Shown one piece after another: positions 5,267 through 23,745 of a stretch of DNA of 23,745 bases. The notes under the pieces are model-generated. The model saw nothing but the letters and a program-made list of their open reading frames with translations. It searched no databases and was not told the origin of the DNA. Position numbers and translations under genes: made by a program. This DNA is from Myxococcota bacterium. Lineage in GTDB: Bacteria; Myxococcota_A; UBA9042; PHBI01; JAWLBL01. The first letter of the stretch is position 1; each line of letters begins with the position of its first letter. The stretch covers positions 1 to 23,745 of the forward strand of contig JAWLBL010000052.1 in assembly GCA_041687695.1 (NCBI GenBank), read 5' to 3'.

Positions 5267-5701
5267 GTGCTCCGGCTCGCCGGAGCTCCGACGTGGCGCA
5301 GCTTGCTGCGCCGGACGTGCCGGCCATGTCCCAGCGTCCAGCGACTGCGTTATGGGCGACGGCGGCCCCGGAGTGCCCCGGCTTGCCGGAGCCCCGAACC
5401 GGCGCAGCTTGCTGCGCCGGACGTGCCGGCCATGTCCCAGCGTCCAGCGACTGCGTCATGGGCGACGGCGGCCCGGAGTGCTCCGGCTTGCCGGAGCCCC
5501 GAATCGGCGCAGCTTGCTGCGCCGTGACAGCGCCCACATCCCAGCGGCCGGCGACTGCGTCATGGGCGACGGCGGCCCGGAGTGCTCCGGCTTGCCGGAG
5601 CCCCGAATCGGCGCAGCTTGCTGCGCCGTGACAGCGGCCATGCCCCAGCGGCCAGCCGCCGGTGTCGGGGCGCGAGCAAGCTCGCAAGCTCGCGCACTCC
5701 C
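5267..5701. repeat. REP/BIME-like tandem array (~105-bp unit, about 4 copies)
   Basis: Hairpin GGCGCAGC-TT-GCTGCGCC at 5295, 5401, 5506, 5610 alternates with (GGA)GTGCTCCGGC-TT-GCCGGAGC. An inverted GGAGTGC-hairpin copy lies at ~5670-5701. Confidence 0.85.
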
Positions 5702-9298: not shown

Positions 9299-9697
9299 TT
9301 ACTGCCCTGACTCCTCAGCGATGGTGGGACAGGCGGTCGACACCACCGGCTCGGCCGAGAACTTGCAGCAGCCGTCACAGCTGAGCCCCTCGATGCTGAC
9401 TCTGCAGCCTGTGACGAGGTCCTCGAAGACCCTATCCGGTCCCGCCGAATCAGCCGTGCAGGCAAGCGCCTCGCACCTGGCTCGCGGGTTCTCTCCCAGC
9501 GCTCTCATCGGAGCGGCGGAGATCGCCTCGTCACAGGCAACAGGGCGACCGTTCACCCGGCAAGAGGCTGCCCCGGCCGTGTCGCACGGACTACTACCGA
9601 ACCCATCACACGAGAGGAGCGCGGAGAGACCGATGACCCCCGATAGGCCACTTCTCAACCACTGCCAACCATGCGCTGAAGAGGTTCGAGCTTTCAT
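9299..9697 (-). CDS. Small Cys-rich lipoprotein, paralog A (132 aa)
   Basis: Lipobox LLSC plus 10 further Cys; RBS AGGA; 104/132 identical to 12081-12479 by manual count. Confidence 0.85.
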   Translation of the reverse strand: MKARTSSAHGWQWLRSGLSGVIGLSALLSCDGFGSSPCDTAGAASCRVNGRPVACDEAISAAPMRALGENPRARCEALACTADSAGPDRVFEDLVTGCRVSIEGLSCDGCCKFSAEPVVSTACPTIAEESGQ

Positions 9698-10918: not shown

Positions 10919-11653
10919 TCATTCAGGTGGACCACACGGCGGACACGGGTAGTACGACGTCTCGAACACCAGCTTGCCGCTGGTGTCGAACTCCATGCCC
11001 CGGATGCGGTCCGGGCGGACGACCATGACCCCGACGCCGATGTCTGCGAACTTGATGGATACGCCCTCACGTCCCGTTCGGAACTTCCATCCCCCCAGGC
11101 CATGGTCCGGCTTGAACTCGTGGGTCTCGGGATCGTATGACGGCGACATCAGCTCGACCGAACCGTCCGGGAACACGTACAAGTTGGGCCCCCACCACTC
11201 ACCGGCCAGCCCATCGAACCAGGCGCCGTCCAGGTGCGTGTCACACACTAGATGAGTAGGCGTGCCCGTCGCGAGCCCCGCATCCGCCAGCGTCTCGAGC
11301 GGCCCAAGGTCGACCTCGGGCCACGCGAGCGCCGGAGGCCTACAAGGACAGTCCTCCTCCAGCCCACACCAGCCGTCCTTCCGAGTTCCCGCGTCGGTCC
11401 CGCCGTCGACGCGCTCGTTCACCTCCACCGTCGAGGCGTCCGTTTCGTGCAAGTCCAGCGGCACGTCACGGTCCCCGCCAGGAGCATCGGACACATCGCC
11501 GGAGGCATTGGCCTCGGCGTCGTCATCGGATGCATCAACCATGGGAAGCTCGGCTCGCGGACCCCGTTGCATGCCGCACGCTGCCATCCATCCCAAACCC
11601 ACCGTCATGAGCGATACATGGGCCACAAGCAAAGTAAGAGACCTGCTACTCAC
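10919..11653 (-). CDS. Hypothetical lipoprotein
   Basis: GTG start, hydrophobic N-terminus ending GWMAAC, acidic linker, globular C-terminal part. Confidence 0.7.
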   Translation of the reverse strand: MSSRSLTLLVAHVSLMTVGLGWMAACGMQRGPRAELPMVDASDDDAEANASGDVSDAPGGDRDVPLDLHETDASTVEVNERVDGGTDAGTRKDGWCGLEEDCPCRPPALAWPEVDLGPLETLADAGLATGTPTHLVCDTHLDGAWFDGLAGEWWGPNLYVFPDGSVELMSPSYDPETHEFKPDHGLGGWKFRTGREGVSIKFADIGVGVMVVRPDRIRGMEFDTSGKLVFETSYYPCPPCGPPE

Positions 11654-11669
11654 ACTACACCGTGAACCG

Positions 11670-11762
11670 GGTGTCAGGGGGCATCATTCTGCGAAAGTCG
11701 ATGGGTGCCAGGGTTCAGTCACGGGCACGGCGAGAAAATGGAAAGTGATGAACCCTGACACC
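11670..11762. mobile_element. 93-bp MITE/REPIN-like element, copy 1
   Basis: GGTGTCAGGGGGCATCA...TGATGAACCCTGACACC terminal inverted repeats (15/17), with an internal GGTGCCAGGGTTCA copy. No obvious target-site duplication. Confidence 0.65.
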
Positions 11763-11767
11763 TGAAG

Positions 11768-11887
11768 TCATGGGAAGCTCGGCTCGCGGACCCCGTTGCA
11801 TGCCGCACGCTGCCATCGATCCCAAACCCACGGCCACAAGCAACTCATGGGCCACGAGGACAGGACAGTAAGAGACCTGCTAGTCAC
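11768..11887 (-). pseudogene. Frameshifted, truncated duplicate of the 5' end of gene 10919-11653
   Basis: 11769-11997 repeats 11540-11763. A 5-bp GTCCT duplication (minus strand) shifts the signal-peptide frame, and the copy ends next to the 93-bp element. Confidence 0.75.
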
Positions 11888-11903
11888 ACTACACCGTGAA
11901 CCT

Positions 11904-11996
11904 GGTGTCAGGGTTCATCATTCTGCGAGAGTTGATGGGTGCCAGGGTTCAGTCACGGGCACGGCGAGAAAATGGAAAGTGATGAACCCTGACACC
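11904..11996. mobile_element. 93-bp MITE/REPIN-like element, copy 2
   Basis: Perfect 17-bp terminal inverted repeats GGTGTCAGGGTTCATCA / TGATGAACCCTGACACC. Confidence 0.7.
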
Positions 11997-12080
11997 TAAA
12001 GTTTGGACCTCGGCCTCGAGGTGTTTGCAAGTTGGGACTTGACCCCGGAGCCTCCAGCGACGCCGACCCTTTCCATCGCA

Positions 12081-12479
12081 TTAGTACCCTGACTCCTCAG
12101 CGATGGTGGGACAGGCGGTCGACACCACCGGCTCAGCCGAAAACCTGCAGCAGCCGGCACAGCTGAGCCCCTCGATGCTGATTCTGCAGCCTGTGACGAG
12201 GTCCTCGAAAACCCTTTCCGATCCCTGCGAATCGGCCGAGCAGGCAAGCGCCTCGCACCTGGCTCGCGGGTTCTCTCCCAGCACTCTTATCGGAGGGGCG
12301 GAGATCGCCATGTCGCAGGGAACTGGGTGACCGTTCACCCGGCAAGAGGCTGCCTCGGAATTCTCGCACGAACTACTACCCAACCCATCACACGAGAGGA
12401 GCGCGGAGAGACCGATGAGCCCCGAAAGGCCAATTCTCAGACACTGCCACCTTTGCGCTTTCGAAGTTTGATTCTTCAT
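12081..12479 (-). CDS. Small Cys-rich lipoprotein, paralog B (132 aa)
   Basis: Lipobox LLSC; starts 7 nt after the protease stop (TAGGACCATCATG); 79% identical to paralog A. Confidence 0.85.
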   Translation of the reverse strand: MKNQTSKAQRWQCLRIGLSGLIGLSALLSCDGLGSSSCENSEAASCRVNGHPVPCDMAISAPPIRVLGENPRARCEALACSADSQGSERVFEDLVTGCRISIEGLSCAGCCRFSAEPVVSTACPTIAEESGY

Positions 12480-18348: not shown

Positions 18349-21300
18349 TCACAGCGTGTACTTGGCTTGGCCCGTGGGGCGAGCTTGGCCGAGGAGGACG
18401 AGGGTGTCCAGGATTTCTTGGACCTGGTCGGTGGGGGCGCGTTTGAAGTGGCGGGCTAGGGATTCGGGGGTGACGGGGGTGGCGAGGGATTGGAGGGTGG
18501 CGCGGACGAGGCGGACGCGGTCGACGAGGGTGGGGGGCCAGGGGGGAGGGTCGGTGGGGGGCAGGGGGGAGGGGGCCGCGGCGGGGGTGTCGGGGGTGTC
18601 GGCGTCGGGCTCGGAGGTGGGCGCGGGGGACGAGGCGGCGGGGGCCTGGTAGTCGGGGCGCAGGTAGCGGACGAGGCCGCGGCGCTCCTCTTCGGCGCGC
18701 TCGGCGTTCAGGGCGACCAGGCGCTCGAGGATCTCTTCGTCGGTCAGGGTCGGCGGCCAGCCGTAGGCCGCGAAGACCGCCGCGTCGAGGTCGTCGTGCA
18801 GCTTGAGCAAGACCGAGCACAGGGCCTGCTCGTGGACCTTCTTGTCTTTGGCCGTGAGCGGGGTGCCCTCGCGCAGTTTGGCGAGCACATTGTAGGTGTT
18901 GGTCAGCGTCAGGTCCGGATGGGCCGCCTGCCGAGCCTTGCGGTGCGTGTCGAGGGCCTCGGCGAGGTCGCGGATGCGGGCGGCCTGGGGCTCGGTCGGG
19001 GCGGGGAAGGGGAAGGGGAGGAAACAAGTGGAGTTGATCCAAAGCGGACGATCTTCGAGGGTGCTACCTGCAGCCAGCATCCATGTGATGTGGATACGCG
19101 ACGAGAGACAACCAAGAAGCATTGAGTCGTCAGATGCGATGACATACATATTGTGATCGATGGCCACTTTGGGAGCCTCGAACACAAAGAGCCTATGTTT
19201 GGCTGCGAAATTCGTGACGATTATTCGGCCGAGGCCAGCGGTGGCCTTGCGGAGTCCGGGCCGAGCTTCTCCCCATATCCACCATCGTTCACGATGATTC
19301 TTACGAGCTACTTGGGCGCGTTGCGGGTAGACCGTATCCAGCAAGTGCTGATAGAGGACCGGATGGGCCGTCCGGGCGGTATCCTCGGTGAGACCGAAGA
19401 AGTCGATCACATGACGGTGGCTAGGAGTCTGCAGGAGATCCCGTCCGTTCTTCCACGGGCGTACGACGGAGGGCAAGGCATCCTCGGCATACCCAAGTTC
19501 CTGTAGCTCCTGCTGCGAGATGCAGAAGCCCTTGCCCACTAGAATGTAGCCTTGGAAACACAAGCCCGTGTTGGCTGCCAACTTCGATGCGGCACCAGCG
19601 TTGGCTCCTACCTTGAAGTCAGCGTTCACGTTGCCTGACTTCGTCTCCAGCAAGACATCGAACTCGCCATCGGCGGTGGGAAGCTCGGCAACCGACTGCG
19701 CTGACACGCCGGCAGACGAGCCATGGCAACCGACGCTCATGCTAATGCGTACAGCCGCACCATTTGCCGAGTCGATCCAAGGGTGGTCCGGCACGGCCCA
19801 AGCGAGCGAGATCCCTGCTTCCAAGTGGGGTTGAATCACCTTCCGCGCGAAGGTCTGCGTGATGCTGTTGGTCGTGATGAACCCGAACCGTCGGACTCGG
19901 CCCGAGCGGACGAGTTCAGCCGCGACATCCCACCAGTACAATACGAAGTCAGCCGTGTCGGGTACGTTGGGGTGTGCAGACCGAAGGGCCTGTACATAGC
20001 CGTCGCCGAGCGCGCCGCGCATGCGCTTGTTGCCGAGGAACGGCGGGTTGCTGACGATGAAGTCGGCCTCGGGCCACTCGGCGCGGCGGGCGTTGGTGTA
20101 ACGATAGAGGACGCGGGTGGCCGTCTCGTCGGGGACGTCCTTGCCGGTGACGGGGTGCTTCTTCATCGTCTCGCCGTCCCAGCGGGTGACGGGGCGGCCG
20201 GTGTCGTCGAGGACCACTTCTTCGGCGTCGAAGGCGAGGACGGCGTCGCGGTGCTCGATGTTGCGGAAGTCTCGGAGGACCGGCTCGGCGGGGGCGACGC
20301 GGCCGTGCTGGCGGTAGTGCCACTGCAGGTAGCCGATCCACAGGACCAGCTCGGCGATGGCGGCGGCGCGGGGGTTCTTCTCGATGCCCAGGAACTGGTG
20401 GGGGTCGACGGTGACGCCCGCCAGGTCCAGGGCCTCTTGCCCGGCGCCGAGGTCGGCGAGGGTCTCGAGGACCTCGCCCTCGAGGCGTTTGATGTGCTCC
20501 AAGGTGATGTAGAGGAAGTTGCCGGTGCCGCACGCCGGGTCGAGGACGCGGATGGCGCAGAGTTGGCGGCGGAAGTCGCGCAGGGTCTCGATGGCCTTGT
20601 CGTGGCGCTCGCGGCGGGTGCGCTCGGTGCCCGTCTCGTTGTGCAGCAGCGTCATGGCCGCCGCCTTGACCGTCTGCCACTCGTCGCGCAGGGGCTCGAT
20701 GACGGTCGGGAAGACCAGGCGTTCGACGTAGGCGCGGGGGGTGAAGTGGGCGCCCAGGGCGTGGCGCTCGGTCGGGTCGAGGGCGCGCTCGAGCAGGGTG
20801 CCGAAGATGGCGGGCTCGACCTCGGACCAGTTGGTGCGGGCGGCGTCGATGAGGAGATCGATCTGGGCGGCGTCGAGCGGCAGGACCGTGACGTCGTGGA
20901 AGAAGCGGCCGTTGAAGCGCAAGATGGTCTGGCGCAGGGCGGGCGAGAAGCCGCCGCGGTCCATGTCGCGCCACAGGGACTCGATCATGGCGGCGAGGCC
21001 GGCCGGGGTCTCGCGCATGTCGGCGAGCAGCTTGGTGAAGCCATCCTTGGGGAGCAGGCCCACGTCCTCGGCGAACATGGTGAAGAGGCAGCGCATCAGG
21101 AAGTCGGCGACGAGATCCGGGCTGTGGCCCTGGCGCTCCAGCGAGGTCGCCAGGACGGCGAGTCGCTCGGCGACGTGGGTGGTGACCTTGGCGGCGTGGC
21201 GGCTGGGGTCGAGGCTGAGCGGGTCGGTCCACAGGCGGCGGAGGCGGTCGAGGACCTTGGGGTCGGCGAGATCATCGAGCAGGAAGCGGTGGGTGGCCGG

Positions 21301-21837
21301 GTCGGGGAAGGGCAGGTAGGCCTTGCCGTCGCGGGCGAAGTTGGCGAAGAGGGCGAAGGCGTGGCCGACGTCGACGACGACCAGGAAGGGGGGCCACTCG
21401 GGCAGGGCGCGGGCGTACTGGGCGGCCTGGCCGTAGGCGCGGTCCATGGCCTGGGACCAGCCGCGGCTGCCGCGGACGGCGGTGCCGAGCTTGCGGCGGA
21501 GCGGGGCGGCGAGGGGGACCGAGGGGGCGGCGGGGGCGGAGTCGCCGCCGGAGCCCTGCTTGGCCTCGAGGACGAAGCAGCCGCGGCGATAGAGATCGAT
21601 GCGGCCGGCGGAGGTCGAGCCGTCGCCGTGGCGGAAGGTGACGGCCTTTTCGAAGACGTAGGTGTTCAGGGCGTCGTCTTCGAGGGTCGGGTCGGGGCGG
21701 GGGACGCCGAGGAGATCGCACAGCTCGGAGAGGAAGGGCTGGGCGTTGGCCAGCTCGGCCCCGCCGGAGGAGCGCCACTTGGCGATGAAGGCGTCGACGT
21801 CGGCGGCGGCGGGGCGGGTGGCGATGGCTTGCGTCAC
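18349..21837 (-). CDS. MmeI-like type IIG/IIL restriction-modification enzyme (endonuclease + amino-MTase + TRD)
   Basis: PD-(D/E)xK nuclease GRIDLYRRGCFVLEAKQG; W..VEPAIFGTLLE; GAHFTP; motif I VLDPACGTGNFL; motif IV NPPF; C-terminal LHDDLDAAVFAAYGWP. GTG 21837 preceded by GGGGA; the Pro-rich extension to 22032 is judged spurious. Confidence 0.92.
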   Translation of the reverse strand: MTQAIATRPAAADVDAFIAKWRSSGGAELANAQPFLSELCDLLGVPRPDPTLEDDALNTYVFEKAVTFRHGDGSTSAGRIDLYRRGCFVLEAKQGSGGDSAPAAPSVPLAAPLRRKLGTAVRGSRGWSQAMDRAYGQAAQYARALPEWPPFLVVVDVGHAFALFANFARDGKAYLPFPDPATHRFLLDDLADPKVLDRLRRLWTDPLSLDPSRHAAKVTTHVAERLAVLATSLERQGHSPDLVADFLMRCLFTMFAEDVGLLPKDGFTKLLADMRETPAGLAAMIESLWRDMDRGGFSPALRQTILRFNGRFFHDVTVLPLDAAQIDLLIDAARTNWSEVEPAIFGTLLERALDPTERHALGAHFTPRAYVERLVFPTVIEPLRDEWQTVKAAAMTLLHNETGTERTRRERHDKAIETLRDFRRQLCAIRVLDPACGTGNFLYITLEHIKRLEGEVLETLADLGAGQEALDLAGVTVDPHQFLGIEKNPRAAAIAELVLWIGYLQWHYRQHGRVAPAEPVLRDFRNIEHRDAVLAFDAEEVVLDDTGRPVTRWDGETMKKHPVTGKDVPDETATRVLYRYTNARRAEWPEADFIVSNPPFLGNKRMRGALGDGYVQALRSAHPNVPDTADFVLYWWDVAAELVRSGRVRRFGFITTNSITQTFARKVIQPHLEAGISLAWAVPDHPWIDSANGAAVRISMSVGCHGSSAGVSAQSVAELPTADGEFDVLLETKSGNVNADFKVGANAGAASKLAANTGLCFQGYILVGKGFCISQQELQELGYAEDALPSVVRPWKNGRDLLQTPSHRHVIDFFGLTEDTARTAHPVLYQHLLDTVYPQRAQVARKNHRERWWIWGEARPGLRKATAGLGRIIVTNFAAKHRLFVFEAPKVAIDHNMYVIASDDSMLLGCLSSRIHITWMLAAGSTLEDRPLWINSTCFLPFPFPAPTEPQAARIRDLAEALDTHRKARQAAHPDLTLTNTYNVLAKLREGTPLTAKDKKVHEQALCSVLLKLHDDLDAAVFAAYGWPPTLTDEEILERLVALNAERAEEERRGLVRYLRPDYQAPAASSPAPTSEPDADTPDTPAAAPSPLPPTDPPPWPPTLVDRVRLVRATLQSLATPVTPESLARHFKRAPTDQVQEILDTLVLLGQARPTGQAKYTL

Positions 21838-21976
21838 GGTGGCTTGTCCCCAGCGAGGTGGCGGGCGGGTGAGCGGTCGCGGCGAGCGTAGGCGATGGGG
21901 TGAGGGGGGCGCAAGCGGGGCGGGGGCGGGGCGTGTGACCTGGGGGAGGGCGGGGTGCGGGGGCGGGGGAGGCGCG

Positions 21977-22282
21977 GGAGGGCTACGGGAGGGCGTCGGC
22001 GCCGGCAGGTGGGACTCGGTAGGACTCCGCATGCGCCTGGGGTCGGCAGGTGGGGCCGAGTAGAGCTACGACCAGGGATCTGTAGAAGGCGGGTGCGGCC
22101 GAGTAGGCCTACCGCGGAGCCGCTGGTCGCGTCAGGTGGGGTGGGGTAGGGCTACCGATGGGGGCCTGGCGCCGGCAGGAGGGGCTCGGTAGCGCTGCGC
22201 GAGGGTCTGAGCCGGGCAGGGGCGTGGCGGTAGGCCTACGGGAGTAGCTCGAACGCGGTCAGATGGCCCGCGGTAGGTCTGC
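21977..22282. repeat. ~42-bp periodic dual-palindrome array (7 units plus a terminal box)
   Basis: GTAGnnCTAC-like boxes at 21977, 22019, 22060, 22103, 22146, 22189, 22230, 22273. Each of the first seven is followed by 7-9 nt, a 15-nt CCTG-N7-CAGG-like box and exactly 9 nt. Confidence 0.85.
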
Positions 22283-22421
22283 GGATGTTCGAAGAGCTGC
22301 TTGGGAGCACGGGGCTGGTGCGGTGCAGGGGGCGGTTTGCGCGAGCGGCTCGACGGTGGTAGTCGTCGAAGTGGGCCCGATCGCGGGCCGTAACCTATCC
22401 CACATCCAGAGGAGAGGAGCG

Positions 22422-23154: not shown

Positions 23155-23194
23155 CGCGGGGGGCCCGGCCTTCGGGTCGGGCCCTCCGCGTTTT
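23155..23194 (+). terminator. Rho-independent terminator
   Basis: CGCGGGGGGCCCGGCC-TTCG-GGTCGGGCCCTCCGCG followed by TTTT, 4 nt after the stop codon. Confidence 0.85.
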
Positions 23195-23266
23195 GGGTGC
23201 CCGGCGGGATAGAGCTCCGGCTGGGATGGTCGGTGGGGTCATGGCGTCGGCGTGGCCGGTGGGTAG

Positions 23267-23745
23267 CCACCCGGCACCGGCGGTTGCGCCGTCGGCGCCG
23301 GGAAAGCGCCGGCATGGCCGGCGCACTCCGAAAGCGGGCCTGCGGCCCGCGTGAGCCGCGAATGCGCACGATCCCGCGACGCCAGCCGCGTACGCCGCCG
23401 CAGGCGGCTTTCGGAGTGCTCGGCCCATGGCCGAGCTTTGCGCCGGCGTGGCCGGCGCGTCGCCACCCGGCGCCGCCGGCTGCGCCGTCGGCGCCGGGAA
23501 AGCGCCGGCATGGCCGGCGCACTCCGAAAGCGGGCCTGCGGCCCGCGTGAGCCGCGAATGCGCGCGATCCTCCGAGTTTTTGGCCCGCGTGAGCCGCGAA
23601 TGCGCGCGTTCCCGCGACGCCAGCCGCGTACGCCGCCGCAGGCGGCTCTCGGAGTGCTCGGCCCATGGCCGAGCTTTGCGCCGGCGTGGCCGGCGCGTCG
23701 CCACCCGGCGCCGGCGGCTGCGCCGTCGGCGCCGGGAAAGCGCCG
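23267..23745. repeat. REP/REPIN-like tandem array (~196-bp unit, runs off the window end)
   Basis: Units start at 23267, 23463, 23701; the second has a 42-bp internal duplication. Each complete unit holds AAAGCGCCGGCATGGCCGGCGCACTCCG and an inverted CGGAGTGCTCGGCCCATGGCCGAGCTTT. Confidence 0.9.

Follow-up and report, generated by a model that had tools for sequence, protein, structure and literature searches.

A tandem array whose units measure four helical turns travels with a family of genes for small proteins that bear no family name: the period is kept while the sequence drifts, the array may lie on either side of the gene, no third gene is conserved beside the two, and in the clade of the protein described here the units follow a common short frame of triplets. 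Array and gene may thus make up a two-part cassette, in which the array would be a DNA docking strip where dimers of the neighbouring protein line up, a reading that we give about an even chance on the sequence patterns. The window, i.e. the whole stretch of DNA that was analysed (23,745 nucleotides), is the entire contig C52 of a 7.97-Mb genome, 73% GC, and the features concerned are these:

18349..21837, minus strand: MmeI-like type IIL restriction-modification gene (MmeI_N, MmeI_hel, MmeI_Mtase, MmeI_TRD), a divergent neighbour
21889..21976, no strand: G-rich stretch adjoining the array on its left, which may represent two decayed units (family D3, spacing 43), a weak case
21977..22282, no strand: non-coding tandem array of seven full 41-43-bp units that ends in one more box A, the eighth; dyads of two kinds alternate at a distance of about 21.5 bp
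22337..22365, plus strand: putative, weak sigma-70-type promoter (TTGCGC, 17 nt, TAGTCG) between array and gene
22410..22419, plus strand: Shine-Dalgarno-like AGGAGAGGAG ahead of the P0001 gene
22422..23150, plus strand: P0001 gene, the array's partner gene (242 aa, predicted all-helical, of an unnamed family, predicted symmetric homodimer)
23155..23200, plus strand: intrinsic-terminator-like hairpin (16-pair stem, T run) that closes the P0001 gene

The array is real and non-coding. Its eight box-A copies start at 21977, 22019, 22060, 22103, 22146, 22189, 22230 and 22273, spaced 42, 41, 43, 43, 43, 41 and 43 bp apart with a box B in between, and the letters quoted in the preliminary description, which had reported a dual-box array of about 42 bp, match the sequence. 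At lags of 41-43 there are 40 identical 4-mer pairs (z=7.5, p<0.001 against 2000 dinucleotide shuffles), a pattern that does not arise from composition alone, and stop codons occur in all six frames across the array, in agreement with the earlier argument against a coding repeat. The "fixed 9-nt spacers", on the other hand, did not hold up: the first spacer measures 8, 7, 9, 9, 9, 7 and 9 nt, and only the second is 9 nt in 7/7 units. Since spacer 1 varies in length and spacer 2 is itself a degenerate, decayed repeat (mean pairwise identity 0.52, compared to 0.39 expected from composition; spacer 1 is variable, at 0.31 compared to 0.40), the array stands and its fixed unique spacers do not. Both boxes had been called palindromic, which is true of box A (6-10 of 10 positions matching) and only loosely so of the 15-nt box B (4-12 of 15). 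Likewise, the alternation of about 21 bp persists as the 21.5-bp separation of the two dyad centres, but a direct 21-bp repeat is absent (lag 20-22, p=0.28, dinucleotide shuffles). The array was not picked up by Tandem Repeats Finder, and Rfam returned two weak matches far under gathering scores, both of which lie outside it. A strict-pattern search for phased box-A chains found, genome-wide, only the array in the window; the array itself appears in none of 60 close relatives examined, and contigs of three DNA runs hold exact matches to parts of the P0001 gene, none of which spans the array.

P0001 is flanked by the MmeI-like gene on one side and by repeats at the contig end on the other. Upstream periodicity is missing from seven of eight homologs of the MmeI-like gene, some of them anchored on partial matches, and borderline in the eighth (p=0.015); the array pairs with the downstream 242-aa gene, and the restriction gene is outside the module. 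The promoter candidate at 22337..22365 is not the top-scoring site in the promoter search and was not called by a consensus scan, and a sigma-70 promoter conserved across homolog loci was not borne out (p<=0.05 in 6/39). Other repeats also occur in the window. The contig-end repeats (23239-23745) are 238-bp direct repeats which reach past the end of the contig and have inverted copies on C55; they carry a weak 42-bp signal and constitute a dispersed structured repeat whose sequence is unrelated to the array. A non-coding 104-bp tandem repeat of 3.7 copies (91% matches, about ten helical turns) is located at 5267-5656, and two 234-bp copies (91%) at 11540-12002 lie inside an island of lower GC content, which also contains a pair of similar ORFs (9299-9697 and 12081-12479) and genes whose predicted products resemble lipoproteins.

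The association with the 22422-23150 gene, which the preliminary description had suspected, is borne out by homologous loci. P0001 has 34 close homologs and 185 profile matches at E<=0.001 among 1.84 billion representatives; the homologs that carry a name come from Polyangiaceae, by which the window's genome probably belongs to Myxococcota. The distribution of the family is patchy, with members in 7/401 genomes of the phylum (narrow profile), 14/401 genomes in another class (wide profile) and 15/301 in one family, and carrier genomes often hold several copies. A single fixed rule was applied, namely 41-44-bp periodicity within 400-bp flanks. By this rule 13/23 loci were array-positive in a first homolog set (both flanks testable, window excluded), 11/18 in a second (12/19 before L105, a locus identical to L005, was dropped; 2/4 among its weak profile matches) and 10/17 in a third, for which the upstream flank only was used. 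Altogether 34/58 homolog loci (about 59%) have an array upstream or downstream, and 24/58 lack one under the rule, compared to 185 of 5675 genes in the window's genome (3.3%, genes called by a simple in-house gene finder) and to 0/37 and 1/47 control windows placed 1 kb away. The loci are not independent, several coming from one genome, and a pooled p-value is therefore withheld.

A paralog on C45, 46% identical to P0001, has its own 42-bp array with a different sequence. The genes of L028 and L030 are 96% identical and share one unit, which lies downstream at one locus and upstream and inverted at the other; the position and strand of the array relative to the gene look free. A distant homolog (L031) has a period of exactly 44 bp, so that the ruler length differs slightly between clades. 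Among 61 flanking frames at 35 homolog loci there is no conserved flanking partner gene. A defence-island setting was considered as a general context and rejected, as about 5 of 35 loci have a defence-like flanking gene.

Unit sequences vary between loci, yet the arrays of P0001's clade have in common the frame GGA-N7-CTG-N7-CAG-N7-TCC followed by N9/10, whose triplets, of which a unit keeps up to four, stand one helical turn (10 bp) apart; 33+10=43 bp makes four turns per unit. Box B is the centre of the frame and box A is the local filling of the N10 gap, as the following copies exemplify:

22146..22155, no strand: one of the box-A copies (GTAGnnCTAC), a palindrome peculiar to this locus and occupying the 10-bp gap between two 33-bp frames
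22156..22188, no strand: best-kept frame copy, SGA-N7-CTG-N7-CAG-N7-TCS, 33 bp (score 14.0, the maximum in the window)
22166-22178, no strand: box B core CTG-N7-CAG, inside the 22156..22188 copy

In an unbiased scan of 960 trimer dyads, CTG-N6/7-CAG reached p=0.005-0.006, which fails correction; it was pursued because it is identical to the window's own box B. This anchor is repeatedly accompanied by TC at +8/+9 and by GA in the mirrored place, a flank pattern with p<0.01 in 7/10 loci when one locus at a time was left out (p=0.14 for the window). Among 17 held-out loci the strict motif is phased in 4, compared to 0/17 control windows, and in these 4 loci, 3 of which are similar, TC occupies +8/+9 in 13/26 flanks versus 31/572 at other offsets. 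A 33-bp matrix, built from 7 discovery loci with the held-out loci not used, forms chains in 6/9 of the held-out loci that lack the strict motif (p<=0.05, floor 0.016). The degenerate form CTS-N7-SAG, picked post hoc after inspection of the data, is phased at 9/13 close homologs, 4/29 distant ones and 49/1897 background genes; as a label on the protein tree, its clustering is not significant (50/500 shuffles). The frame thus recurs in held-out loci and is weak in the window itself: the matrix chains over 3 window units (p<=0.05), a partly circular result since the anchor was taken from the window's box B, and most of the outer triplets there have diverged, the left being kept in 1/7 and the right in 2/7.

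The N7 linkers between the triplets are related copies within each array (identity 0.54 versus 0.30 expected, 16 homolog arrays; in the window 0.60 for the right and 0.37 for the left linker, with 0.38 expected), which fits growth via tandem duplication and not spacer acquisition, and each former "spacer" partly overlaps the clade's conserved triplet positions. The earlier proposal of phased protein-binding sites gains support from the gene link and from a clade frame at one-turn triplet spacing, as judged from sequence patterns; a common frame could also stem from descent without recognition. In one subclade (L005, L010, L080, L092), a common palindrome TCAG-N7-CTGA is located about 100-170 bp before the start codon, between array and gene, and carries the box-B triplets in inverted arrangement. 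It is a possible operator candidate.

Arrays of this kind are abundant in the window's genome. It has 1876 intergenic regions of >=150 bp. Periodicity was detected in 333 of them, and in 64 the period is 41-44 bp, which makes this class one of the two most populous (periods 10-13 total 69). Unit lengths range from 40 to 45 with a mean of 42.3 (176 intervals in 30 arrays), or about 10.6 bp per turn; five arrays were left out of this set, four with under four units and one, beside C34:14955, which proved to be a coding repeat and thus a false positive. The two best dyads lie half a unit apart in 12/35 arrays, and the array sequences fall into several groups and 19 singletons. As judged by eye, at least 18 of 69 array candidates adjoin genes for 237-295-aa proteins of several unnamed families, at least 2 adjoin HNH genes and the remainder lie mostly between ordinary genes; at least 2 adjoin genes of the P0001 family. 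As few of the 69 candidates stand beside such genes, arrays exist without the gene, and dozens of them in this genome have no P0001-family gene. The profiles of the other array-linked families, which are based on shallow alignments, gave no alignment with that of P0001. Real arrays accompany 19 of 20 members of these other families, 18 of which had been picked for having one, and 1 of the 2 members found blind.

Gene and array can also be duplicated as one unit. Another gene-plus-array unit is present on contigs C1 and C6 (L032/L051) as a recent duplicate of 1392 bp, 90% identical, in unrelated surroundings, which spans from about 150 bp before the gene through the end of the array; by eye, neither terminal repeats nor a target duplication are evident at its ends. 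A further array (L049, C8:161092-161510) has ten 41-43-bp units between convergent transaldolase-like and protease-like genes and shows the phased CTG-N7-CAG of the P0001-clade arrays in the absence of a partner gene, which makes it a possible orphan. Arrays of 42-43 bp are also found near the genes for two HNH nucleases (L047 on C12 and L048 on C4; 75% identity to each other). At L030 in genome G389, an inverted pair of 46-bp repeats (1108-1153 and 2790-2835) was considered as transposon ends and rejected; it is a REP-like hairpin scattered through that genome (about 18 matches, often near contig ends).

Such abundance bears on two alternatives. The arrays could be neutral local satellites that arise from length-biased duplication, with the gene family merely sitting in variable regions, as the many periodic intergenic regions and the scarcity of such genes alongside most of them would suggest. 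This we hold to be quite improbable, since about 59% of homolog loci stand against 3.3% of background genes and 1/84 control windows, and since the triplets keep a fixed spacing between proteins of about 40-45% identity while the intervening letters differ. Alternatively, another host protein, such as a nucleoid protein or an activator, could read the phased array and control the gene family, whereby the neighbouring protein would be the regulated product. The presence of same-period arrays beside several non-aligning gene families and between ordinary genes speaks for such a reader, as do the net acidic charge of P0001 and the upstream position of the close-clade arrays, where these are found. 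Yet the frame tracks the protein clade across genomes, paralog-free arrays within one genome are mostly dissimilar (the 19 singletons), arrays of other clades lie downstream and the unit shared by L028 and L030 switches sides, and we consider this explanation unlikely.

The protein itself belongs to no family in four libraries (Pfam, NCBIfam, PHROGs, PADLOC), and searches of 123 family members against PADLOC, NCBIfam and PHROGs gave single stray matches. Viral contigs contain no P0001 relative, and among PDB sequences the best match has E=0.04. An AlphaFold2 model (123 sequences; pLDDT 90, pTM 0.61) is all-helical, with no beta strands, and contains two long helical runs, residues 34-89 and 140-200. 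The near-invariant residues are D3, D7, E10, Y14, Y186, L198, F211, D213 and L214, and basic positions are conserved at 63, 77, 82, 114, 165, 179, 191 and 203; the most conserved residues are acidic or aromatic, and the net charge is -6 (family median -2). The fold search with the first model gave a best VIA Z of 8.8, with generic four-helix bundles, and Foldseek with the second model gave no match at E<=0.001; no Nop, ParB or nuclease chain is among the matches listed, generic helical matches of this kind being unable to exclude a family. The modelling supports a symmetric homodimer: the homodimer model scored 0.63 (best of 3 controls, 0.01), against a mark which 20/30 solved one-chain pairs and 1/23 single chains reach, counts that apply only roughly to a model from an in-house alignment. 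The runs agreed on 100% of contacts, with partner pLDDT >=76 and an interface of residues 30-40 and 184-200. Since 55-60 helical residues measure about 80-90 A if straight, a head-to-head dimer could span the 33-43-bp unit (112-146 A).

The docking-strip reading can be described as follows. An elongated helical homodimer would occupy each 42-43-bp unit once, i.e. once per four turns; each monomer would recognise a pair of triplets from the same side of the helix, and the dimer axis would fall on the centre of box B. Adjacent dimers would abut over the 10-bp gap, occupied by box A in the window, and would thereby build a short protein filament. The array would expand via tandem duplication of its units and then decay, and arrays upstream of the gene would let P0001 control or titrate its own expression. 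We favour a self-contained cassette, presumably spread horizontally, over a core host function. Against a docking strip count the net acidic charge of P0001, the 24/58 array-free loci and the gene-free arrays in the genome.

The array could instead be transcribed and act as RNA, each unit forming a hairpin whose symmetric 7x7 internal loop lies between GGA:TCC and CTG:CAG pairs and which is bound by the dimer in an antitoxin-like or guide-like manner. The array indeed folds better than 100 shuffles (z=-3.5 on the plus and -2.6 on the minus strand), yet palindromic arrays in general fold well on both strands. Several of the box deviations in the window, as read from the sequence, are G-U compatible; upstream arrays, however, show no G-U bias, with no excess of G-T over A-C in the dyad arms (28:28, 27 expected), and a mild G-T excess was found in downstream arrays (49:35, 39 expected). 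Palindromes perfect to the centre, used to distinguish DNA from RNA, were seen in 3/13. Parallels are to be found in the TIGR layout of 5-15 units, upstream or downstream, with locus-varying repeats and a symmetric dimer, as given in the available part of PMC12045711, and in the constant-size satellites of B. coagulans, reported in part of PMC8625621 to appear in RNA-seq reads. The occurrence of one unit in either orientation relative to the gene, linkers which are copies of each other and a 10-bp triplet spacing that fits B-DNA all argue in the other direction, and an RNA role for the array is distinctly unlikely. A more elaborate variant, which we regard as highly unlikely, is an RNA-guided or RNA-scaffolded system without Nop, in which the array would be cut to RNAs of about 42 nt, the 7x7 internal loop would be held by the helical dimer, the Asp/Glu/Tyr cluster (D3, D7, E10, Y14, Y186, D213) would form an active site and the system would seed orphan four-turn arrays.

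In the preliminary description the architecture was likened to TIGR guide-RNA arrays. In the available parts of the sources (PMC12045711; bioRxiv 10.64898/2026.09.09.750476), the definition of TIGR combines motifs of the box C/D type with a 36-nt unit, spacers that vary and a Nop protein, and the rule for box C/D chains used here was taken from the available part of the latter. TIGR-Tas systems resemble the present case in their alternating short repeats, 5-15 units, position on either side of a small gene, locus-varying repeats and symmetric dimer, so far as these sources extend. Two short repeats alternate here as well, with gaps of about 9 nt beside a small gene, but TIGR-Tas repeats are 8-12 nt long with spacers of about 9 nt, while here box B is loose and extends over 15 nt and spacer 1 ranges from 7 to 9 nt. 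In place of a chain of box C (CCA and variants) and box D (UG), only scattered intervals were found: UG...CCA repeats are absent, CCA occurs once on the plus strand, and neither strand contains a run of four box C-N8-10-box D intervals at 4-5-bp gaps. The unit is 41-43 nt, mostly 42-43, with a family mean of 42.3, and not about 36. Variable guide spacers are replaced by decayed copies, the linkers not being unique, and when spacer pairs were compared as split guides with the own genome, 12/13 pairings had no exact match in five arrangements; the exception, a GC-rich 16-mer, had two own-genome matches plus one in another arrangement, taken as chance. P0001 has no Pfam family and no sequence sign of Nop, its fold matches being too generic to exclude one. 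A TIGR array with a divergent Tas protein has a negligible chance, and the guide-RNA option is not supported.

REP/BIME elements with RAYT occur as palindromic arrays scattered between genes; some are accompanied by a dedicated gene, which codes for an HUH Y1 transposase, and many stand without one. The present arrays are likewise dispersed, palindromic and intergenic, some gene-linked and many orphaned, yet P0001 matches no HUH or other transposase, and each array has its own sequence at a fixed four-turn period, in contrast to one genome-wide REP. One array-linked gene in the genome matches DUF6261 (PF19775, E=3e-7), and DUF6261 is among the two nearest named Atlas clusters for P0001 (0.87; a lead only); P0001 and 122 aligned homologs have no DUF6261 match, nor does a profile comparison with DUF6261 give one. 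A closer parallel in layout is sopC of the F plasmid, with 12 direct 43-bp repeats, each containing a 16-bp inverted repeat, together with sopA and sopB (available part of PMC3177203). Direct repeats of about 43 bp that hold an inverted repeat beside the gene of a presumed binding protein are found in both, to the extent that the source describes them. The differences are that ParA/ParB are absent in the window and among 61 flanking frames at 35 homolog loci (1.5-3 kb flanks), that many different arrays occur per chromosome and that each unit has two dyads.

Bacterial tandem repeats of constant size and variable sequence present an open puzzle, for which Subirana and Messeguer suggested either small RNAs or a protein, left unnamed in the available part of their paper, whose polymerisation on DNA would depend on repeats of constant size (PMC8161180). 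That part of the paper reports only lengths of 20-23 and 52 nt and names no adjacent gene family, while constant-size repeats in B. coagulans have RNA-seq evidence of transcription according to part of PMC8625621. A term search of PMC6749651 found no mention of '42 nt', '43 nt', Sorangium or Myxococcus, and searches of an open-access library turned up no paper that ties such arrays to a gene family; the authors' survey of 1241 genomes may list 42-nt repeats. The present genome has the same hallmarks, i.e. many non-coding arrays of one length and differing sequences (64 regions), but with a unit of 41-44 nt and dyad symmetry, a candidate reader and a clade-specific frame. It thus offers a concrete pair: a small protein without a known family, and a short frame which goes with the clade of that protein. 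Should binding prove true, DNA would here be recognised in a new way, by an all-helical dimer that acts like a ruler, and the pair may account for one of the major classes of repeats between genes in these genomes; if false, there is still a common cassette, missed by annotation and mistakable for TIGR arrays. The constant-size repeat class is the nearest description of these arrays, to which the present work adds the gene link, a candidate reader and a testable code.
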